From NCBI RefSeq assembly GCF_050320075.1, contig NZ_CP190018.1: a DNA stretch of 64,000 nucleotides, one strand, 5' to 3'. This stretch comes from Escherichia coli. Lineage in GTDB: Bacteria; Pseudomonadota; Gammaproteobacteria; Enterobacterales; Enterobacteriaceae. Every line of letters begins with the position of its first letter. Position 1 is the stretch's first letter. A program made the translations under genes and the position numbers. Shown in pieces: positions 1,600-48,624 of this stretch. The notes under the pieces were generated by a model. That model had not been told where the DNA came from and did no database searches. It was given only the letters and a program-made list of their open reading frames with translations.

Positions 1600-3361
<1,762 letters not shown>

Positions 3362-4228
3362 TTAAGGGCGTGCGAGGAAATTCAGCACCAGTTGATTGAA
3401 AGCGTCGGCATGTTCCCACTGCGCCCAGTGACCACAGTCGCGGAAGATATGCAGTTCAGAACCGGCAATGCCGGACAGCAGACGCAGACCCGCATCCATC
3501 GGCACAAAGCGGTCGTTGCGCCCCCAGACAATCAGGGTTTGCGCTTTGATTTCCGCCAGACGTGGGCCAAAATCCGGGAACTGTTTCGGATTGGCTTCCA
3601 GGCTCTTAACGAAGTTTTCCAGGTGATCGCGGCGCGACAGCATATTATTCAGGCGCGCTTCAAACAGGGCGTCGGTCAAATCGCTGGTATCAAAAACGAA
3701 GATATCCATCATCAGCTTCAGGTTTTCGATAGTCGGCTGACGATAAAGCTGATTCAGTCGCTTAATACCTTCGGTTGGCATCGGCGTAAACAAACTCATG
3801 CCGCCCGTACCGCCGCCCATCAGCACCAGTTTGCCGACGCGCTCCGGCCAGTTAAGAGTGAACGCCACAGAACTGTGGCCGCCCATCGAGTTGCCCAGCA
3901 GGTGGATTTTGGCGATATCCAGTTGATCCACCACGCTTTTCAGGATTCGCGCATTAAGATCCGATCGCGAACCACTATTAACGATCGAATCGCTCTTACC
4001 CCAACCCGGACAATCCAGCAGGATCACCCGATAGCCCGCCTCTACCAGCGGATCGATATTGCGGCTGAAGTTCGCCCAGCCAGTAGCACCCGGGCCGGAA
4101 CCATGCAGCAGGACAACAGTTTCGTCGCCTTGTCCGCAGTCATTAAAATGGATGCGCAGCGTTTTACCCGCTTCTTCTACATTCAGAAAACGGCTGGTGG
4201 CGGCTTCGGTTTGTGGCTGATAACTCAT
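3362..4228 (-). CDS. mhpC: 2-hydroxy-6-ketonona-2,4-dienedioate hydrolase (alpha/beta hydrolase)
   Basis: ORF 3362..4291; start placed at [14 protein letters not shown] (288 aa) by recalled K-12 N-terminus; GNSMGG nucleophile-elbow motif. Confidence 0.9.
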
Positions 4229-4245
4229 CATCTTCTCCTGCATAT

Positions 4246-5190
4246 TCAGTTCTCTGTTCTGGCGCTTAACGAGCCAAATCCGGCAATCCACTCCGGGATT
4301 GGGCGGTAATAACGCCCTTCGCTACGCCAGTTGCCAAACGCAGAAATAGCGGCAAAAGCGGCGACCCAGGTTTTGATTTCATGTGTCGACTTTCCGGCAA
4401 TGGCGGAAAGCTCTTCGTTACTGACGGCATCCAGTTCCTGTATGCGTCCCTGCTCCAGCAAAGTCATGAACTGGTTATCCCAAATCGGGTTGAGCGGATG
4501 CAGAGTTCTCTGATCCTCAACAAACTTCTCAGCGGCGCTAATCACCCGCTGCTGACGCAATTCACGCTCAGTGGCGGGTAAATCTTTCCCGCTCCCCAAC
4601 AGACGGTCGCGCATATGGGCATCGGCTTTCGCCAGTTCTGGCACCGGCGGCTGATGGGAAAGCCCACCGGACCCAAGGAACAGCACGCGTTTATTGAGAG
4701 TGCTGGTGAAACGTCCAATGGCTTCCCCCAACATGCGGGTACGCTGGAAACCGGGCAGCGGTGTGGCGACACCGTTGATGAACACAGGCAGAACCGGCAC
4801 CTTATCCAGCCCACCGAGCAGGAACTCCAGCGGCTGGGCGAACCCGTGGTCCACCTGCATACAGTAAGAAACGGCAAGATCGATCCCGCTCTTCATGACG
4901 GCATGCGCACAGGCCTCCGCCAGCTCCACAGGCACGGGCAGCTCTCCTGCCGCACTGCCGAAATCACCAATTGCCGTCGCTCCAACGCCTAAACAGAACG
5001 GTGGCATCACGTCATAGAAAAAGCCGTTGTAGTGATCTGGCGCAAACAGCACCACCAGTTCAGGGGAGAAAGCCGCAATACGCTCGCGGGCGCTGGCAAT
5101 CACGCCATTGACCTCATCGAGCACCTCTTGCGCCGGGTCGACATACCCCACCAGCGGCGAGTGGGAAAGACAGTGAAGATAAGCGTACAT
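4246..5190 (-). CDS. mhpB: 3-(2,3-dihydroxyphenyl)propionate 1,2-dioxygenase (extradiol)
   Basis: 314-aa ORF; LigB-type extradiol dioxygenase sequence. Confidence 0.92.
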
Positions 5191-5191
5191 A

Positions 5192-6856
5192 TCAGGCTAC
5201 CTTTTCGACAGAAACGTCGGCATCAGGGCGGGTCAGCGTCATCACCGACGCCAGTTTATTCAGGGTCTTGCCCAGGGTTTGCGGAATGGCGGTGGCGGCA
5301 ACAAAGCGATCCGGGCGCATCACCACCAGCGAAGCATTGTGTTGCGCGAACCAGCTACGCAGGCGACCTTGCGTATCGCCCACGCGTAGTACGCCGTCGT
5401 GGTTATCCTGTGCGGTATGAATTTGCACTTCCGGCACCACCTGAATGAAGCGTGTGCCCAACGCGCGCCACTGCTGGATTTGCTCGTCGCTCATCCCCCA
5501 CAGTGGATTGCATCCCCAGCCAATTACCGCGAAGTTCGCGCCGATCGCGTTATCGAGCAGCGTCACGTCGCCGTTTTCCAGCGTGACTTTCGGCTGAATA
5601 AACATCTTGCCGACCGGAGAGTGCTTCGCTTCGCCCTCACGCACCAGCGCACCGCCGTAATATTGCGGCATCGGCTTGAAGCGCATTTCGAGGAAGTAGC
5701 GTTTTACTGGCGGCAGATAATTCAACAGCCAGGAAACGCCGTCACGTAACGTACCCTGCCAGCGTTTCGGTGGAGCCAGCACGTTGCCCGCCGTCACGGA
5801 CAGGTCAATCATCGCTTTGGCGTGATCGCGACGTTCTTGTTGATAGGTATCGAGCAGCGCATCGCGGGCTTTCCCCTGGATAACCAACGCCAGTTTCCAT
5901 GCGAGGTTAAAGGCGTCGCGCATACCACTGTTATAGCCCTGCCCCTGCCACACCGGCATGATGTGCGCGGCATCGCCCGCCAGCAGTACGCGATCAATAC
6001 GAAAACGTTGCGCCAGTCGCGCGTTGTGGGTGTAGACACGCTGGCGAATCAATTCAACATTGTCCGGATTAGGCAGCACTTTGCTTAACAGCTTGCGCAT
6101 ATTTTGCGGCTCACGCAGCTGTTCTTCGGTTTCTCCCGGCATCACCATAAATTCAAAGCGACGTACCGCATGAGGCAGCGCGGCAGAAACATACGGGCGC
6201 ACCGGATCACAACACAAATAGATATGCGGCGTACTTAACGGATCGTTGGCGATATCTACCACAATCCACTGATTTGGCGCAGTTTTACCTTCAAACGGCA
6301 CATTCAGGGTGCGACGGACAAAACTTGCCCCACCATCACAGGCCACCAGCCACTGGGCTTTGACCGTTTCCCGCTGCCCTTCTGCCGTTTTCAGGTGCAA
6401 GGTCACTTCGTCATCTTGCTGGCTGAAGGCCTCCAGCTCGCGGGAAAACAGGCAGCGCACATTCGGAAAACGCGACAATCCTTCCAGCATCACCGCATCG
6501 ACCTGAGGCTGAATAAAGGCGTTACGGCGCGGCCAGCCAAATTCATCGGTCATTGGCTGAATATCAGCAAAACAGCGACCTTTTGGGGTGAGAAAACGCA
6601 TCGCGTGCCACGGCGTAGTGTGCGGCAGAACATTATCGACCAGGCCAACCGACTGCATGGTGCGCAGCGCCTCGTCATCAATACCAATCGCACGCGGGTA
6701 GTCGATCAACTTATCGAGTTTCTCCACCACCAGCACGTCAATGCCCATCTGGCCGAGATAGTTCGCCATCATCAGCCCGACCGGACCGGCACCAGCGATC
6801 GCCACCTGAACGCTATGGTTAACAGCAGGCTGGATGTCAGGGTGTTGTATTGCCAT
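5192..6856 (-). CDS. mhpA: 3-(3-hydroxyphenyl)propionate hydroxylase (FAD monooxygenase)
   Basis: 554-aa ORF; N-terminal FAD motif [18 protein letters not shown]. Confidence 0.93.
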
Positions 6857-7046: not shown

Positions 7047-7880
7047 ATGCAGAACAATGAGCAGACGGAATACAAAACCGTGCGCGGCTTAACCCGCGGT
7101 CTAATGTTATTAAATATGTTAAATAAACTTGATGGCGGTGCCAGCGTCGGGCTACTGGCGGAACTCAGCGGCCTGCATCGCACCACTGTGCGGCGACTGC
7201 TGGAGACGCTGCAGGAAGAGGGATATGTCCGGCGTAGTCCCTCCGATGATAGTTTTCGTTTGACCATCAAAGTGCGGCAATTAAGCGAAGGATTTCGTGA
7301 CGAACAGTGGATTTCTGCACTGGCGGCCCCGCTGCTGGGCGATCTGTTGCGCGAAGTGGTTTGGCCAACAGATGTGTCCACCCTGGATGTTGATGCAATG
7401 GTGGTACGCGAAACTACCCACCGTTTCAGCCGCTTATCCTTTCACCGGGCAATGGTCGGGCGACGGTTACCGCTTCTGAAAACCGCCTCGGGCCTGACCT
7501 GGCTGGCCTTTTGCCCGGAACAAGAACGCAAGGAATTAATCGAAATGTTAGCCTCCCGCCCCGGTGATGACTATCAACTGGCACGGGAACCGTTAAAGCT
7601 GGAAGCCATTCTGGCGCGCGCGCGCAAAGAGGGTTACGGACAGAACTACCGCGGCTGGGATCAGGAGGAGAAGATCGCCTCTATTGCCGTACCGCTGCAC
7701 AGTGAACAACGGGTGATTGGCTGTCTGAATCTGGTGTATATGGCGAGCGCAATGACCATTGAACAGGCAGCGGAAAAGCATCTTCCGGCGCTGCAACGGG
7801 TGGCAAAACAGATCGAAGAAGGGGTTGAATCGCAGGCTATTCTGGTGGCCGGACGGCGAAGCGGCGTGCATTTACGTTGA
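7047..7880 (+). CDS. mhpR: IclR-family activator of the mhp operon
   Basis: ORF 7035..7880; start placed at MQNNEQTEYKTVRG (277 aa). Confidence 0.9.
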   Translation: MQNNEQTEYKTVRGLTRGLMLLNMLNKLDGGASVGLLAELSGLHRTTVRRLLETLQEEGYVRRSPSDDSFRLTIKVRQLSEGFRDEQWISALAAPLLGDLLREVVWPTDVSTLDVDAMVVRETTHRFSRLSFHRAMVGRRLPLLKTASGLTWLAFCPEQERKELIEMLASRPGDDYQLAREPLKLEAILARARKEGYGQNYRGWDQEEKIASIAVPLHSEQRVIGCLNLVYMASAMTIEQAAEKHLPALQRVAKQIEEGVESQAILVAGRRSGVHLR

Positions 7881-41245: not shown

Positions 41246-42664
41246 TCAGACGCCGTAACGTTCGCACCAGCCAAGAATGGCTTTCTCGAAGCAGGCGAAT
41301 GGTGGATGCACAATGCCCGCGCCAATCATGCCAACGCCCGCATCTTTATGGGCAATGGCGGTGTTGATCACCGGCAGAATGCCGCTACTGCCCACGCGGG
41401 TGATGTCGATTGCCGACGGCACGCCCATAAAACCGAGCAGCGGAATGGTGACGTTGGGGTTTTCACCGAGAGTGATTTCGCGCATCTGACGGGAGAAATC
41501 GATAGCCTCTTCCACCGTGCCGCCCACCAGCGCGACGATCGCGGGCGCGGTAGCCATAGCAAATCCACCAATGCCGTAGGTTTCGGTGATGGCGCTGTCG
41601 CCAATATCCAGCCCCGAATCTTCCGGCTTATAACCGGCAAACATCGGGCCGATCACCTGCTGCGCCGGACCGGTAAACCATTGCCCCGGTAATCCGCTGA
41701 CCCGCAGGCCGAACTCGACGCCGTTACGCGCCATCGTGGTGACCACGGTGCTGTATTCGATGCCGTGCGCCGCATCCATCGCCGCTTTACACATCGCCAT
41801 CCACGTCGGGCCGGAGAAGTAGTCGCTGCTGGCGACAAACTCAAACACTTCGCGCTGTTGCTCGACGGAATAACCTGCCTGAATAATCCCCGGCGTCAGC
41901 GCCTGAATCAGCAGCGTCGTCCCGGCGTTATTACGGTTATGGCATTCATCGCCCATATGCAGCGCCTGCGCCAGCATTAAGCGCAGATCGATTTCGCCGA
42001 TAATTTTCATCGCGTCGCGCAGCATTGGCCCCTGCACATCGCGCATCCAGTTGAGGCGGTCAATCACGCTCTGGTCGTTAGCGCCCATACGCAAAATCTT
42101 CGCCATCTGCTCGCTCATATTGGTGTAAGCGATGTTGCCGTAGGTTTTGTTTTTTACGATGTGCATAAACATCGAGGCCGAGGTAACACCTGCCATCGAT
42201 CCCACACAGTCGTGTTCATGGCACGGCGAGAAGGTGATCTCCCCGGAGGCCGCCAAGTCAGCCGCCTCGTCGAGATCTTTCGCCAGCCCTTCGAACACCA
42301 GCGCCCCGGTGACCGCGCCTTTCATTGCGCCGCACATTTTTTCCCAGGTCACTGGCGGCCCGGCGTGAAGAATGGTTTTCGGCGTCATTCCCGGCACCAC
42401 GTTAATCGCCTGATCAAAACCAATCAGCACCGGATGCGACTGGATAATGCGCTCCAGCGCCTGCTGGTTAGCGGCGGCGATTTTGTCTGCCAGCGGCGAA
42501 TCGGCAATGTTATCCAGCGCCTGCACCACCTGCATATTGCCCTGCCCCGGCGGCGTCCAGTCGAGTTGGGTCACTTCTACATGCTGCTTTTTCAAATCAT
42601 CGCTAAACATGGCGATGCCGACGTTAATAACGTTCAACGGTTGGCTAAACAGTGACTGGCTCAT
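41246..42664 (-). CDS. yahG: DUF1116-family protein
   Basis: 472-aa ORF; 1-bp stop/start overlap with yahF. Confidence 0.85.
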   Translation of the reverse strand: MSQSLFSQPLNVINVGIAMFSDDLKKQHVEVTQLDWTPPGQGNMQVVQALDNIADSPLADKIAAANQQALERIIQSHPVLIGFDQAINVVPGMTPKTILHAGPPVTWEKMCGAMKGAVTGALVFEGLAKDLDEAADLAASGEITFSPCHEHDCVGSMAGVTSASMFMHIVKNKTYGNIAYTNMSEQMAKILRMGANDQSVIDRLNWMRDVQGPMLRDAMKIIGEIDLRLMLAQALHMGDECHNRNNAGTTLLIQALTPGIIQAGYSVEQQREVFEFVASSDYFSGPTWMAMCKAAMDAAHGIEYSTVVTTMARNGVEFGLRVSGLPGQWFTGPAQQVIGPMFAGYKPEDSGLDIGDSAITETYGIGGFAMATAPAIVALVGGTVEEAIDFSRQMREITLGENPNVTIPLLGFMGVPSAIDITRVGSSGILPVINTAIAHKDAGVGMIGAGIVHPPFACFEKAILGWCERYGV

Positions 42665-44211
42665 CAGGCTTCCTCCCCTTTGCAGATAAATTCACGCGCC
42701 AGCAATCCGGTATTGGTGCTGCTGCTTGCCAGAATTACCCCAGCATCAAGCAGCATCTGGCTTTGTTGTTCTAACGATGGCGTATCGAGATCGGTACCCA
42801 GCACATAGGCGAGAATGATCAACTCGCGCCCTTCGGCAGCGGCGATCGCTTTCGCCTCTTTGATCGCCTCGATGGTGGAACCGACCGGATCTTCATGCGA
42901 TCCAAACCCGAGCACAAAATCCATCACGATCACCGCCACTTCTGGATCGTGCGCCTCTTCGATCAAGCGGCTGATACGGTTGGTGGGGTCAATCATTGGA
43001 TGCGGCTTGCCGTTGGTGAAGTCGTCATCGCCAAAGTCGAGGAAGGTGTGTTTGATGCTGCGGTTGATATCTTGCAGGCGGAATTCAGGATCGGGCTGAA
43101 TGTTGCTGTAGACATCGCCATGTTTTTCCATCACCGCGAACATGGTTTCGTCACACAGCGTACCGCCGCAGAACAGGCCACGAATGTATTTCTGTTGCGG
43201 CTTCAGGCGAGCGCGCACGTCAGCAATCAATGGCTGGTTCAGGGTATGCAGATCGAGATGTTCCTGTTTCACGCCGGAGAGCATCACCGCTTTCAGCGCC
43301 GCTTCTTTGCTGCCGCGGGCAAACTTTAGCCCCTGCTCATCCACTGGCGTTTCGCCACGACCGAGGAAGCAGACCACCACCGGCTTGCGGCAGGCGCGTG
43401 CGCGTTCCAGCACTTTGCGGGCCACCGCAGGCGCAGGCGGTTTGGAGATAAGCACAATAATTTCAGTTTGCGGATCGTTTTCCAGCATCCCGATGGCGTC
43501 GAGCATCATCAGGCCGCCGATTTTCTCGCTCAGGTCGCGCCCGCCGGTGCCGATCAGTTGCGAAACGCCGCCGCCAAATTCATGGATACGGACGCTCAGC
43601 TCCTGGCTACCGGTGCCGGATGCGCCAACAATGCCGATGTTGCCGCGACGCACGGCGTTACCAAAGCAGAGCGCCGCGCCGTTGATAATCGCCGTACCGC
43701 AGTCTGGCCCCATCATCAGCAGCCCTTTTTCGTGGGCCAACTGTTTGAGCGCCAGTTCATCTTCAACTGAGACGTTATCGGAAAACAGCATCACGTTAAG
43801 ATCGTTTTGCAGCGCCTGACGCGCTTCGCGAGCGGCAAACAGACCGTTGACCGAAATCACCGCCAGGTTACTTTCCGGGATATGCTTTTTGGCGCTGGCA
43901 ATAGTGGCGTAACGCGCCTCGTGCGGGCCGCTTTGCGCTTTGCTGTTGAACAGTTCTTCAATCTCCACCAGCAACTGCTCGTTGTCTGCGCCCGATTTAC
44001 CATTGATGACAATCATCAGGTCACCGTTTTTCGCCTGCTCCAGCTCCGGCGTCAGCAGCCCTAAATTCTTCAGCACGCCTTTGTTCATTTCGGTCGCCAT
44101 CGCCACAAATGCCTGCTCGACGCCGTCAAGTTTATTTGCACGCGTGGAGATAGACATCAGCGAGACAGAATCAAAATAGGTATTCGGTTTAATGACTATT
44201 TTAACTGACAT
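42664..44211 (-). CDS. yahF: FdrA-like protein (CoA-binding, succinyl-CoA-synthetase-alpha-like fold)
   Basis: 515-aa ORF with two Gly-rich CoA/nucleotide-binding-like segments. Confidence 0.85.
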   Translation of the reverse strand: MSVKIVIKPNTYFDSVSLMSISTRANKLDGVEQAFVAMATEMNKGVLKNLGLLTPELEQAKNGDLMIVINGKSGADNEQLLVEIEELFNSKAQSGPHEARYATIASAKKHIPESNLAVISVNGLFAAREARQALQNDLNVMLFSDNVSVEDELALKQLAHEKGLLMMGPDCGTAIINGAALCFGNAVRRGNIGIVGASGTGSQELSVRIHEFGGGVSQLIGTGGRDLSEKIGGLMMLDAIGMLENDPQTEIIVLISKPPAPAVARKVLERARACRKPVVVCFLGRGETPVDEQGLKFARGSKEAALKAVMLSGVKQEHLDLHTLNQPLIADVRARLKPQQKYIRGLFCGGTLCDETMFAVMEKHGDVYSNIQPDPEFRLQDINRSIKHTFLDFGDDDFTNGKPHPMIDPTNRISRLIEEAHDPEVAVIVMDFVLGFGSHEDPVGSTIEAIKEAKAIAAAEGRELIILAYVLGTDLDTPSLEQQSQMLLDAGVILASSSTNTGLLAREFICKGEEA

Positions 44212-45064
44212 AATTCCCTCCGTAGGTTTGGCTCAGCGCACAACCATCGGCCATGCCATACAGCATGTCGCAGCCGGAACTGGAGCCAATATGTTTAATT
44301 TTTTCTATTGCCTGAGTTGCGTTCCCAGGGATGTCATAAATAATGTTATGAATAAAACGATGAATATCTTCCCGGCAGCGTTGTTGTAATGCGGCTTCCA
44401 GCGTTATGGCACTTAATAACGTGGTATTATTTCTGCCGCGTTGCAGACCGAGATAAAATTCCTCTTTGTATTTTTCCGCCGGATGCCCAGGAATAAATAA
44501 AATAAGCGCCAGACCTGTTAAATAATCGTCGGCTGATGGCGTAAGGCCAATCCCTAAGCCCATCATACTGGCGACCGCTGAGGCGATATTTTGTTTATCG
44601 TTTACGGCCTGAATAACTGCCCGTCGTTTAATATGTAATTCTTTATTTAACGCCTGATAAAACGGATTATCGCCGCAATAATTAAACAGGGTTTCATTTT
44701 CCCCCAGGTGCTGATGAATAATGTCATGCCACTGTTGCCAGGCGATAAGGTGAAAATTCACAGCGGTCATTTGCAAGGTTGGGGACAGCCAACGCCGACA
44801 ACGACTCATCTCTATATGAAGATGTTGACCAACCGTAATGCCTTGATCGTCAAACTGAACCTTATCACCATGCCGGAACAGACCATCAAAGTGAGTGAGT
44901 GCCAACCGACAACTGTTTGGCGCATTGTCGTACTCTTCACAAAGCAGCGTCAGCAACTGCTGGCGGGCCGGAAGTGCGATATTTACCGCTCTGGCAAAGA
45001 CCTGTTCAACCTGTCCTTGCCCCCGCTGCGCCAGAAAATCAGCATCCGCAGTTAGCGCCCACAC
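44201..45064 (-). CDS. yahE: DUF2877-family protein
   Basis: 287-aa ORF overlapping the yahF start by 11 bp. Confidence 0.85.
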   Translation of the reverse strand: MWALTADADFLAQRGQGQVEQVFARAVNIALPARQQLLTLLCEEYDNAPNSCRLALTHFDGLFRHGDKVQFDDQGITVGQHLHIEMSRCRRWLSPTLQMTAVNFHLIAWQQWHDIIHQHLGENETLFNYCGDNPFYQALNKELHIKRRAVIQAVNDKQNIASAVASMMGLGIGLTPSADDYLTGLALILFIPGHPAEKYKEEFYLGLQRGRNNTTLLSAITLEAALQQRCREDIHRFIHNIIYDIPGNATQAIEKIKHIGSSSGCDMLYGMADGCALSQTYGGNYVS

Positions 45065-45103: not shown

Positions 45104-45709
45104 TTATGCACCTGCGGCCATCAGTAACTGCGCAATCTCTTCAAAGCCTCGTTCCCGCGCCAGTTCCAGCGGCGTTTTGCCATATTTATCCGTCATGTGC
45201 GGGCTGGCACCGTGTTCCAGCAATAACTGGACAATCGCCTGCTGTTTAATCCCGCCATCATTAAGCACAATTGCTTCCAGTAGCGGCGTCCAGCCAACAT
45301 GGTTGGTCTGGTTAACGTTAATCTCCGTATGCGCCAAAAGCTCTTTTACAATACTTAAATGGCCTTTTTCACAGGCAGGCGTCAGGCCGACACCGCCAAA
45401 ACGGGTGACGCAATTAAGATCGGGTTTAGCCGGTAAAATAATCCGTAACAGGGTTAAATCGCCGGTCAGGCAGCTAATTAAAAAAGGATTTGAACATATT
45501 TGATCTTGCTTATTAATATCTGCTCCGGCATCAATTAATGCCTGAACGCAAGCATATTGCTGATATAAACTTGCCAGCGTAATTGCCGTTTTCCCCTGAC
45601 GATCGCAGGTATTAATATCGACACCCAGCGCAAGGCAGGTTTTTACTTTATCGATATCACCCTGTTGCGCAGCCAATAAATAGTCGGCAGGTAGATTTTT
45701 TATAGTCAT
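45104..45709 (-). CDS. yahD: ankyrin-repeat protein
   Basis: 201-aa ORF with repeated G-TPL--A---G motifs typical of ankyrin repeats. Confidence 0.88.
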   Translation of the reverse strand: MTIKNLPADYLLAAQQGDIDKVKTCLALGVDINTCDRQGKTAITLASLYQQYACVQALIDAGADINKQDQICSNPFLISCLTGDLTLLRIILPAKPDLNCVTRFGGVGLTPACEKGHLSIVKELLAHTEINVNQTNHVGWTPLLEAIVLNDGGIKQQAIVQLLLEHGASPHMTDKYGKTPLELARERGFEEIAQLLMAAGA

Positions 45710-45966
45710 TCACATTCCCCTGGTTTTTGTGGCTGTTTTCGATGAATTGAGAATAGCAACGATAATCTGATAAAAGAACCCGCTTAAATTTAATTCGCCG
45801 TATTTCGCCTTTTTGTTGAATGATGTTCAACAATCTTTTCGCAGTGTGCGGTAGTGCAATATTTGTTTCTTTGACCCGATACCCTTTCACTCAATCAGGT
45901 TTTATTTCTCTATAGTCTGCACATGTAAGAGTAGCTTTCGTCCATGTCTAACCAGAGGGGAACAAG

Positions 45967-46464
45967 ATGAACGGACTCACGGCAACGGGTGTCACCGTCG
46001 GTATTTGTGCAGGGCTTTGGCAGTTAGTGTCTTCACATGTTGGGCTCTCTCAGGGATGGGAATTATTAGGAACCATTGGCTTCGTCGCCTTTTGCAGTTT
46101 TTATGCCGCAGGCGGCGGTAAAACGGGGTTTATCAGAAGCCTGGCGGTTAATTATTCCGGGATGGTGTGGGCGTTTTTCGCCGCGCTGGCTGCCGGTTGG
46201 CTGGCCTCGGTGAGTGGATTGTCCACGTTCTGGGCGAGCGTGATTATGACTGTACCCTTCTCGGCGGTAGTGGTCTGGCAAGGACGTTTCGGTTTATTGT
46301 CTTTTATTCCCGGAGGCTTTCTCGGCATGACGCTATTTTTTGCCAGCGGGATGAACTGGACGGTGACATTACTGGGTTTTCTGGCGGGTAACTGCGTGGG
46401 GATAATTTCAGAATATGGCGGACAAAAATTAAGCGAAGCGACGACTAAACGCGACGGGTATTAA
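45967..46464 (+). CDS. yahC: small inner-membrane protein
   Basis: 165-aa ORF with four predicted hydrophobic helices; divergent from yahD. Confidence 0.8.
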   Translation: MNGLTATGVTVGICAGLWQLVSSHVGLSQGWELLGTIGFVAFCSFYAAGGGKTGFIRSLAVNYSGMVWAFFAALAAGWLASVSGLSTFWASVIMTVPFSAVVVWQGRFGLLSFIPGGFLGMTLFFASGMNWTVTLLGFLAGNCVGIISEYGGQKLSEATTKRDGY

Positions 46465-46555
46465 AAGTTATTCAAAAATGATTATCTATCTTTAACCGAT
46501 ACCTCTACAGTCATGGCTGGAGAAATTCATAGTAGATAATGGCGGGAATGGTTTA

Positions 46556-47488
46556 ATGAACTCAATTTTTACCGAAGAGAATCTGTTGGCATTTACTACC
46601 GCTGCGCGTTTTGGCAGCTTCAGTAAAGCCGCAGAAGAGTTGGGTTTAACCACTTCCGCCATTAGCTACACCATCAAGCGAATGGAAACAGGGCTGGATG
46701 TGGTGCTGTTCACTCGCAGTACCCGAAGCATTGAGTTAACGGAGTCCGGGCGTTATTTTTTCCGCAAAGCTACCGACCTGCTGAATGATTTTCACGCCAT
46801 CAAACGCAGCATCGATACTATTTCGCAGGGTATAGAAGCACGGGTGCGCATTTGTATTAACCAACTGCTTTATACGCCCAAACACACCGCACGCTTATTA
46901 CAGGTACTGAAAAAGCAGTTTCCTACCTGCCAGATTACCGTCACCACCGAAGTGTATAACGGCGTCTGGGATGCGATTATTAATAATCAGGCGAATATCG
47001 CTATCGGCGCACCCGACACGCTGCTGGACGGTGGCGGCATTGATTACACGGAGATTGGCGCGATTCGCTGGGCTTTTGCCATCGCCCCGGATCACCCGTT
47101 AGCCTTTGTGCCGGAGCCGATCGCCGAAAGCCAACTGCGTCTCTACCCTAATATCATGGTGGAGGACACCGCACATACGATTAATAAAAAAGTGGGCTGG
47201 TTGCTGCATGGGCAGGAGTCAATTCTGGTGCCAGATTTCAACACCAAATGTCAGTGCCAGATTTTAGGTGAAGGAATTGGTTTTTTGCCGGATTACATGG
47301 TCCGTGAGGCGATGGCGCAATCCCTGCTGGTTACCCGACAAATCCATAATCCGCGCCAGGATTCGCGCATGTTACTGGCGACCCAGCACTCTGCCACCGG
47401 TCAGGTGACGCAGTGGATTAAAAAACAATTTTCGCCAAATGGCATATTAACGGGGATCTATCAGGATTTACTGCATCGGGAGAATTAA
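46556..47488 (+). CDS. yahB: LysR-family transcriptional regulator
   Basis: 310-aa ORF with N-terminal HTH. Confidence 0.88.
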   Translation: MNSIFTEENLLAFTTAARFGSFSKAAEELGLTTSAISYTIKRMETGLDVVLFTRSTRSIELTESGRYFFRKATDLLNDFHAIKRSIDTISQGIEARVRICINQLLYTPKHTARLLQVLKKQFPTCQITVTTEVYNGVWDAIINNQANIAIGAPDTLLDGGGIDYTEIGAIRWAFAIAPDHPLAFVPEPIAESQLRLYPNIMVEDTAHTINKKVGWLLHGQESILVPDFNTKCQCQILGEGIGFLPDYMVREAMAQSLLVTRQIHNPRQDSRMLLATQHSATGQVTQWIKKQFSPNGILTGIYQDLLHREN

Positions 47489-47529: not shown

Positions 47530-48624
47530 TCAACCACCTGCTTTCATTACCCATTCAGAGATAAATTTATTACCCGGTACTGGCGGAGAGTACAAATAGC
47601 CCTGCAAAAAGTGAACGCCTTTGCCGATCATTAAATCCGCCTGCTCCTGGGTTTCTACCCCTTCCGCCACGATACTCAGACCAGGCTTACGCGCCAGTTC
47701 GACAATATTGTCCACAATATGACCGGATATTTCGTCCACGCTCGCCATTTGCACAAATGACTTATCGATCTTAATAAAATCGACCGGGAACGCCTGCAAG
47801 TAACGATAGGTCGCATAACCCGTACCAAAGTCATCCAGCGCAAAGGTAATGTTGTGCTGATGAAGGCTGTCAAATATCGCTCTGGCTTCTGGCGTTACCG
47901 GAATAGGGTTACGTTCCGTTAGCTCGAGAACCAGTTTGATTTTATCGTTACCTAATTTCTTAACCAGGTTCAGGCATTCTTTTTCAAATCCCGCAGCCAA
48001 AAAACAACCCGCCGAGACGTTGATGCCAATATGGAAATTGTCCGGCAGCAAATGTTTTACCGGCATCAGAATATCCGCAGTCTGTTTCATCAACTGGCGA
48101 GTCATTATGACGATAAGACCAGATGACTCCGCCAGAGGAATAAACTGATCCGGTGGGATAATTCCCGTTTGTGGATGTTCCCAGCGGACAAGCACCTCAC
48201 AGCCCGTCAGTACCCCAGTCTGCGCGCAGAAAACCGGTTGGATCCACGGTTTAAATTCATGGTTTTCCAACGCCAGACTGATGGCTTCAGGCGTGACGAT
48301 ATGGTGATAGTGATTATCATTAATATATTTGTGACTATTATTACCCGTGGCGGATATGATCTCCGGATTGTACTGAAAGAAAATATCCCGCCAGAAAGTA
48401 ATATCGCTCTGAATCCCCAGTTTCTCAAAGAGCTGTTTCTTTTGATGTGAAATGGTCTTTGCACTGCGATTTCTGTACTGTGATATTTCTGTTACAGACA
48501 TTCCCTGCATCAGCAGCTTGAGTAGCAGTCGTTCTTTCTCGGATACGCTACCAGGCAATGACAAATGAACCGTTGTACCGAACTCTTGCAGAAAAACACG
48601 AAAATCACATGAATTCATGAACAC
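47530..48624 (-). CDS. pdeL: c-di-GMP phosphodiesterase with LuxR-type HTH and EAL domain
   Basis: 364-aa ORF; N-terminal LuxR HTH (LLKLLMQGMSVTEISQYRNRSAKTIS) and C-terminal EAL-domain motifs. Confidence 0.9.
   Translation of the reverse strand: MFMNSCDFRVFLQEFGTTVHLSLPGSVSEKERLLLKLLMQGMSVTEISQYRNRSAKTISHQKKQLFEKLGIQSDITFWRDIFFQYNPEIISATGNNSHKYINDNHYHHIVTPEAISLALENHEFKPWIQPVFCAQTGVLTGCEVLVRWEHPQTGIIPPDQFIPLAESSGLIVIMTRQLMKQTADILMPVKHLLPDNFHIGINVSAGCFLAAGFEKECLNLVKKLGNDKIKLVLELTERNPIPVTPEARAIFDSLHQHNITFALDDFGTGYATYRYLQAFPVDFIKIDKSFVQMASVDEISGHIVDNIVELARKPGLSIVAEGVETQEQADLMIGKGVHFLQGYLYSPPVPGNKFISEWVMKAGG

Follow-up and report, generated by a model that had tools for sequence, protein, structure and literature searches.

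A conserved inverted repeat between yahD and yahC of Escherichia coli is a probable operator site of the LysR-type regulator YahB

Classical operators of LysR-type regulators, such as those of BenM/CatM (ATAC-N7-GTAT), CbnR, NahR, TrpI and OxyR, are built on a 15-bp, base-centred interrupted dyad that contains T-N11-A and lies in a divergent promoter region beside the regulator gene. A stronger, promoter-distal site is accompanied by a weaker one that lies about three helical turns closer to the promoter, the textbook positions being −65 and −35, and a further site can precede the regulator gene. The primary site is usually occupied by the regulator even without inducer. A related system in E. 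coli is that of AllS, the activator of allD in the allantoin regulon. AllS is a LysR-type paralogue of YahB; over 290 aa the two are 38% identical, and they have the recognition-helix motif 'ISYxIK' in common. The AllS locus encodes paralogues of YahF/G/E, namely AllF/G/H (FdrA/YlbE/YlbF), and of YahI, a carbamate kinase. YahB and most yah genes are part of the E. coli "y-ome", and the yah cluster is among the dense blocks of uncharacterised genes in this organism (PMC11551758). In the literature that we searched we found no published account of a YahB operator.

The DNA analysed here (the window, 64 kb in full) contains the yah locus of E. coli in the orientation opposite to that in K-12. A 2.6-kb query was 100% identical to several RefSeq E. 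coli chromosomes with the annotation yahE, yahD, yahC, yahB and pdeL, and by the annotation of these identical genomes the context of yahD, yahC and yahB given in the initial annotation is correct. The minus strand carries yahF (42664–44211), yahE (44201–45064) and yahD (45104–45709), for which Pfam indicated a CoA-ligase-like protein of the AllF type, an AllH match and an ankyrin-repeat protein, respectively; YahG has a Pfam match to AllG. Given these matches, YahE, YahG and YahF are paralogues of the oxamate carbamoyltransferase subunits. On the plus strand, yahC (45967–46464; DUF1097) forms the rightward member of the divergent pair with yahD, and is followed by yahB (46556–47488; HTH_1 and LysR_substrate domains), which encodes the LysR-type regulator proposed here as the binder. 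The gene pdeL (47530–48624, minus strand) lies 42 bp beyond yahB. We propose yahD as the first gene of a leftward target operon, yahD-E-F-G and onward; yahDEFGIJ was suggested previously to be one operon (PMC4765031).

Within the yahD-yahC spacer, the initial annotation had pointed to a LysR-box-like palindrome at 45815–45831, and the sequence at these positions reads gTTGAAtgatgTTCAAc, exactly as it was given. The inverted repeat is real and longer than had been noted: two arms of 8 nt, TTGTTGAA (45813–45820) and TTCAACAA (45826–45833), are 100% complementary and enclose a spacer of 5 nt (TTGTTGAA-tgatg-TTCAACAA, 45813–45833, no strand assigned, centre 45823). The K-12 allele (335156–335176 of NC_000913.3) is a perfect palindrome of 21 bp, TTGTTGAATA-A-TATTCAACAA. 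The T-N11-A motif, which had served as the argument for a LysR site, has no weight by itself, since it occurs 24 times in the 257-bp spacer; its frequency across the window is one per 17 bp. Perfect 8-nt arms separated by 3–9 nt were present in 3% of 5000 Markov simulations of the spacer, and arms separated by exactly 5 nt in 0.6%; the window contains about 15 distinct inverted repeats of the same class. Inside the 8-nt arms lies TTGAA-N5-TTCAA, an interrupted dyad of about 15 bp that is base-centred and includes T-N11-A, as is typical of LysR operators. We propose this strong dyad as the primary (recognition) site of YahB.

To compare the locus among Enterobacteriaceae, a YahC scan with one genome per species was used, which resulted in 19 loci from Escherichia, Citrobacter, Raoultella, Enterobacter, Kluyvera, Klebsiella and Pseudocitrobacter. 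All 19 have yahC-yahB on the strand opposite to that of yahF-E-D. YahB identity is 91–99% across these loci, and YahE identity is 55–63% outside Escherichia. An alignment of 20 spacer sequences revealed 1.5–2.0 bits per position (2.0 for most) for TT.TTGAA and TT.AA.AAT, and only 0.7–1.1 bits for the five central positions of the dyad, which are free to vary. Accordingly, the Escherichia alleles (TGATG, TAATA and TATCA) differ within the dyad spacer, and E. whittamii has one change in a flank. In these 20 sequences a compensatory change was seen at none of the nine symmetric pairs of the dyad, and one pair is often A-C. Fixed arms, a free spacer and zero compensation together argue that the symmetry is maintained as sequence, as in a protein-binding site, and not for base-pairing. 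The mean column identity of the whole yahD-yahC spacer is 74%; much of it is conserved, so that conservation alone is not specific to the dyad.

The core motif TTGAA-N5-TTYAA has two matches in the 64 kb, compared to 0.36 expected: the dyad of the yahD-yahC spacer and a copy that precedes yahB. The second copy (46461–46475; TTAAAAGTTATTCAA on the plus strand, TTGAA-taact-TTTAA on the minus strand) overlaps the stop codon of yahC, is located about 88 bp upstream of the yahB start, and is proposed to be an autoregulatory site. It is kept in all 19 Enterobacteriaceae loci and thus in every genus, and its distance to yahB is near-constant also where the yahC-yahB gap is longer by 100–120 bp (Citrobacter, Raoultella and Enterobacter). 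In the orthologous loci of about 10 kb each, the exact core again marks the two corresponding places and no others; two Kluyvera loci, whose first site carries a single mismatch, and a truncated contig deviate from this. RNA-seq base means of 76 for yahB and 5.6 for yahC (PMC8464067) suggest that yahB has its own promoter, which would fit an autoregulatory site upstream of it. The extra sequence in the yahC-yahB gap is GC-rich, has a REP/BIME-like look and is not present in Escherichia and Kluyvera (positions 5490–5600 of locus L005, 2396–2510 of L012, and 5490–5550 of L006, L007, L009, L016 and L018); the motif copy is unaffected by it.

A weaker partner of the strong dyad, TTAAA-tttaa-TTCGC (45784–45798, no strand assigned, centre 45791), is located 32 bp away on the yahD side, in a block that is nearly invariant in the Enterobacteriaceae alignment. 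We propose it to be an activation-type site. When a pair was defined as a strong site with at most one mismatch and a weak site with at most two mismatches, 31–33 bp apart, a single pair was present in the 64-kb window (0.06 expected). Pairs of this kind lie beside yahB orthologues in seven further lineages, eight in all. The distance between the centres is 32 bp in Aeromonas cavernicola (YahB 84% identical; centres at 5702 and 5734 of the compared locus), Cedecea neteri (78%; 5902 and 5934), Pantoea sp. A4 (77%; 5747 and 5779), Zophobihabitans entericus (74%; 7629 and 7661) and Neisseriaceae CLB008 (53%; 7925 and 7957), and 33 bp in Pragia fontium (76%; 3275 and 3308) and Pasteurella testudinis (61%; 353 and 386). 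The pair is unique within 13–17 kb, with a simulated expectation of 0–0.12 per locus, except in Pasteurella, where one extra pair was found inside the yahD coding sequence. The consensus is ATTGTTGAA-N5-TTCAAYAAT for the strong site and roughly CGyTTrAA-N5-TTCAyC for the weak site.

In Aeromonas, Zophobihabitans, Cedecea, Pantoea and Neisseriaceae CLB008, yahB directly borders the proposed operator, with yahD or an allF-like gene on the other side. Loci with a divergent yahB have the classical LysR layout, in which the strong site is on the side of the regulator gene and the weak site on that of the divergent cluster gene. All genes have the same direction in Pragia, and the weak site is proximal to yahD. 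The weak site of Pasteurella faces a divergent permease gene, which is a cluster member in other taxa, and not yahD, so the direction of control is not uniform. An orphan yahB-like gene of Providencia, which is not accompanied by a yah cluster, has no site of this kind upstream. The locus of Neisseria sp. Ec49-e6-T10 is ambiguous: the relevant spacers contain only single sites with 1–2 mismatches, and the sole pair in this AT-rich genome falls within the coding sequence of yahB itself. A long inverted repeat, ATGAAAAATTAT-tg-ATAATTTTTCAT (7772–7797), is located between yahB and the carbamate kinase gene of this strain and could represent the operator in a diverged form. The Herminiimonas locus was not informative for the motif, as the region upstream of its operon is outside the compared sequence.

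The genes linked to yahB vary between lineages. The core is the ankyrin protein YahD, joined in most loci by the amidohydrolase YahJ; AllF/G/H-like carbamoyltransferase subunits, a carbamate kinase and a permease are usually added. In Cedecea neteri and Pragia fontium the cluster comprises only yahD (ankyrin), a yahJ-like amidohydrolase gene and yahB; these YahB-linked clusters are devoid of AllF/G/H-like enzymes, and the full strong/weak operator is kept. In Aeromonas (108–1655 of the compared locus), Zophobihabitans (1283–2830), Herminiimonas (3319–4872), Pantoea (1–1096) and Pasteurella (1–247) the cluster includes a gene for a membrane protein of some 515 aa, which is probably a permease and has no recorded Pfam hit. 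No tblastn match to it was obtained in the window or in the Enterobacteriaceae loci. The counterpart position of this gene in K-12 is occupied by yahH, described as 'filled with REP23 sites' (PMC11551758).

Positions 45600–46100 were scanned for sigma-70 and terminator consensus sequences, and nothing was found. The supplements of the Cappable-seq (PMC4782308) and SMRT-Cappable-seq (PMC6131387) studies have no entry for mapped starts at this locus. Since the consensus scan was empty, the promoter positions given here are predicted from conservation only. A candidate extended −10 element of the predicted yahD promoter, TTGCTATTCTC (TGn + TATTCT), lies at 45749–45759 on the minus strand, and this block is invariant in the 20 Enterobacteriaceae sequences. 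In Aeromonas, Cedecea, Zophobihabitans and Pragia, TTGnTA(T/C)(T/G)CT is located exactly 20 nt from the weak site, and the Pantoea version, TTGCTATTCT, about 23 nt from it. Variation is limited to the 'n' and to inner positions of the hexamer, the pattern expected of an extended −10 element. Transcription of yahD would accordingly be predicted to start near 45743, which would put the strong dyad at about −80 and its weaker partner at about −48. These values, counted from the predicted −10 element, lie further upstream than the textbook −65 and −35; positions in this range are reported for LysR-type activators, NahR and CatR among them.

For yahC, the near-invariant hexamer TATAGT (45911–45916, plus strand; five of its six bases invariant) may be the −10 element of a predicted promoter; this hexamer also precedes the yahD operon in Pasteurella. 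A CRP-like site, TGTGC-ggtagt-GCAAT (45845–45860, no strand assigned, centre 45852.5), is present 29.5 bp to the right of the dyad, and its TGTG...CA is invariant across the Enterobacteriaceae alignment. It lies at about −70.5 from the start implied by TATAGT, and to judge from its sequence CRP may bind here. The equivalent in Pasteurella testudinis, TGTGAtgtttgTCACA (406–421), is a perfect TGTGA-N6-TCACA at −41.5 from TATAGT (443–448), and a second perfect CRP-like site (319–334) is found on the opposite side of the site pair.

The only regulator gene that is consistently linked to the motif is yahB. The motif occurs beside yahB orthologues with 53–99% identity, and the recognition helix T(T/P/S)SA(I/V)S(Y/H)x(I/V)KR is conserved throughout the orthologue set. 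TTGAA-N5-TTYAA is absent from the intergenic regions of the all locus. It follows that AllS and YahB do not share an operator, and that 'AllS' names on YahB orthologues are annotation transfers and should not be taken to mean shared specificity. In the K-12 region 529000–553000, the allD-fdrA spacer has the CRP-like sequence TGTGATATTCATCAC and no YahB-type dyad.

Since the primary site of a LysR regulator is usually occupied in the uninduced state, a blank in YahB ChIP-exo has to be read as a genuine negative. The one published binding study of YahB, a genome-wide YahB-8myc ChIP-exo in glucose M9, gave just three sites with a signal/noise of 1.3–2.0 (ygjD, nlpI and yhcC) and no peak at the yah locus (PMC8464067, Dataset S4). 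The signals near noise, the C-terminal tag and the low expression make a failed experiment plausible, but the result is still the main caveat to YahB as the binder. A YfeC ChIP-exo peak at 334131–334162, labelled 'yahC', was considered as a match to the dyad and rejected, as its coordinates refer to NC_000913.2 and the peak is about 230 bp away. This yahC-labelled peak has a signal/noise of 55.9 and belongs to a list of 50 sites that matches the YfeC list (PMC8464067, Dataset S4). Its corrected position in the window is about 46049–46080, inside the yahC coding sequence, and no dyad-like sequence was seen there.

The blank in the ChIP-exo data would also be understandable if the dyad were the operator of an unlinked regulator with a TGAA/TTCA-type half-site (FNR/CRP-family, ArgR, Cra or Fur), and YahB acted elsewhere or were inactive. 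The half-sites indeed resemble several known global-regulator motifs, and the conserved CRP-like site only 29.5 bp away implies that global regulators probably act on this region. The FNR site (TTGAT-N4-ATCAA), the ARG box (TGAAT-N4-ATTCA) and the Cra site (TGAA-N4-TTCA) all have an even total length, whereas the dyad is base-centred and is off the FNR/ArgR/Cra register by one base in every orthologue. This is most evident for the FNR/CRP family, whose sites are likewise palindromic with similar TTGA/TCAA half-sites: FNR has TTGA-N6-TCAA and the dyad TTGA-N7-TCAA, and the CRP-like site adjoining the dyad is a separate one. Moreover, within the window and every compared locus the motif is found at the yah locus and nowhere else, it tracks yahB across orders, and a strong/weak pair spaced by 32 bp is not a known binding mode of FNR/CRP-family proteins, ArgR, Cra or Fur. 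We therefore regard an unlinked regulator as unlikely.

Another DNA-binding protein is encoded close by, as pdeL lies just beyond yahB. PdeL, a LuxR-type regulator and c-di-GMP phosphodiesterase, is proven to bind DNA at palindromic boxes (bioRxiv 10.1101/2021.10.01.462762). Binding of PdeL to the dyad is nevertheless a reading to which we give hardly any credence, since pdeL is adjacent only in Escherichia, the dyad is kept in genera with no pdeL orthologue within about 5 kb on each side, and the promoter region of pdeL, which contains the known PdeL boxes, has no copy of the core motif. The palindrome could also work through its nucleic-acid structure, as the hairpin of a terminator, an attenuator or another RNA element, or be a functionless product of chance. 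An RNA fold predicts a stem of 9 bp (−7.3 kcal/mol, z = −2.4), followed by TCTTTT on the plus strand. This stem is weak and AT-rich, no gene ends upstream of it on either strand, the terminator scan was empty, Rfam gave no match, and the lack of compensatory change at all nine pairs, with A-C mismatches common at one of them, does not speak for pairing. The dyad thus does not have the features of an intrinsic terminator or a structured RNA, and chance is excluded by the conservation across orders together with the repeated paired layout. Taken as a whole, a hairpin or a functionless palindrome is very improbable.

The reading that we prefer, with a probability of roughly 75%, is that the dyad is an operator site of YahB and represents the high-affinity half of a two-site LysR-type operator. 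The proposal of the initial annotation, a candidate YahB operator in the divergent yahD-yahC region, gains support from the invariant arms, the copy upstream of yahB, the recurring pair and the conserved recognition helix. As in the classical systems, the dyad lies in a promoter region beside a LysR gene, with a second, weaker site a few helical turns toward the predicted regulated promoter and a further site in front of the regulator gene. Several features differ from the classical operators. The half-site ATTGTTGAA is specific to the YahB subfamily; in Enterobacteriaceae yahC separates the regulator gene from the operator, and yahB has its own upstream site; the predicted positions of −80 and −48 are further upstream; and for the yah locus binding by YahB is a prediction. 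The dyad with its symmetry, the way in which it is conserved, the pairing of strong and weak sites and their occurrence beside yahB orthologues are observations; which protein binds, where the promoters lie, which way regulation goes and that there is an inducer are predictions.

In the proposed mechanism, a YahB tetramer would bind the strong dyad together with the weak copy 32 bp away (45784–45798), which adjoins the conserved extended −10 element (TGnTATTCT) of the predicted leftward yahD promoter. Binding of an inducer, a small molecule, would let YahB switch on yahD-E-F-G and the downstream genes. Through the third site (46461–46475), in front of yahB, YahB could adjust its own synthesis by autoregulation.

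We also slightly favour a broader view, in which the three sites make up YahB's operator and its minimal regulon. The regulator would then be conserved from Enterobacteriaceae as far as Pasteurellaceae, Aeromonas and Neisseriaceae, and would activate a metabolite-responsive, uncharacterised pathway for a nitrogen compound that is also under control of CRP. The predicted regulon would include the yahD operon, yahC and yahB. The conserved three-site operator provides concrete fragments for binding assays. If our reading is correct, the operator would be a direct reporter for the inducer, and hence for the substrate of the orphan pathway, and could be used in inducer screens for this pathway, a paralogue of oxamate/oxalurate breakdown. 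The mechanism itself would be ordinary textbook LysR regulation; the new part is a handle on an uncharacterised regulator and its pathway.
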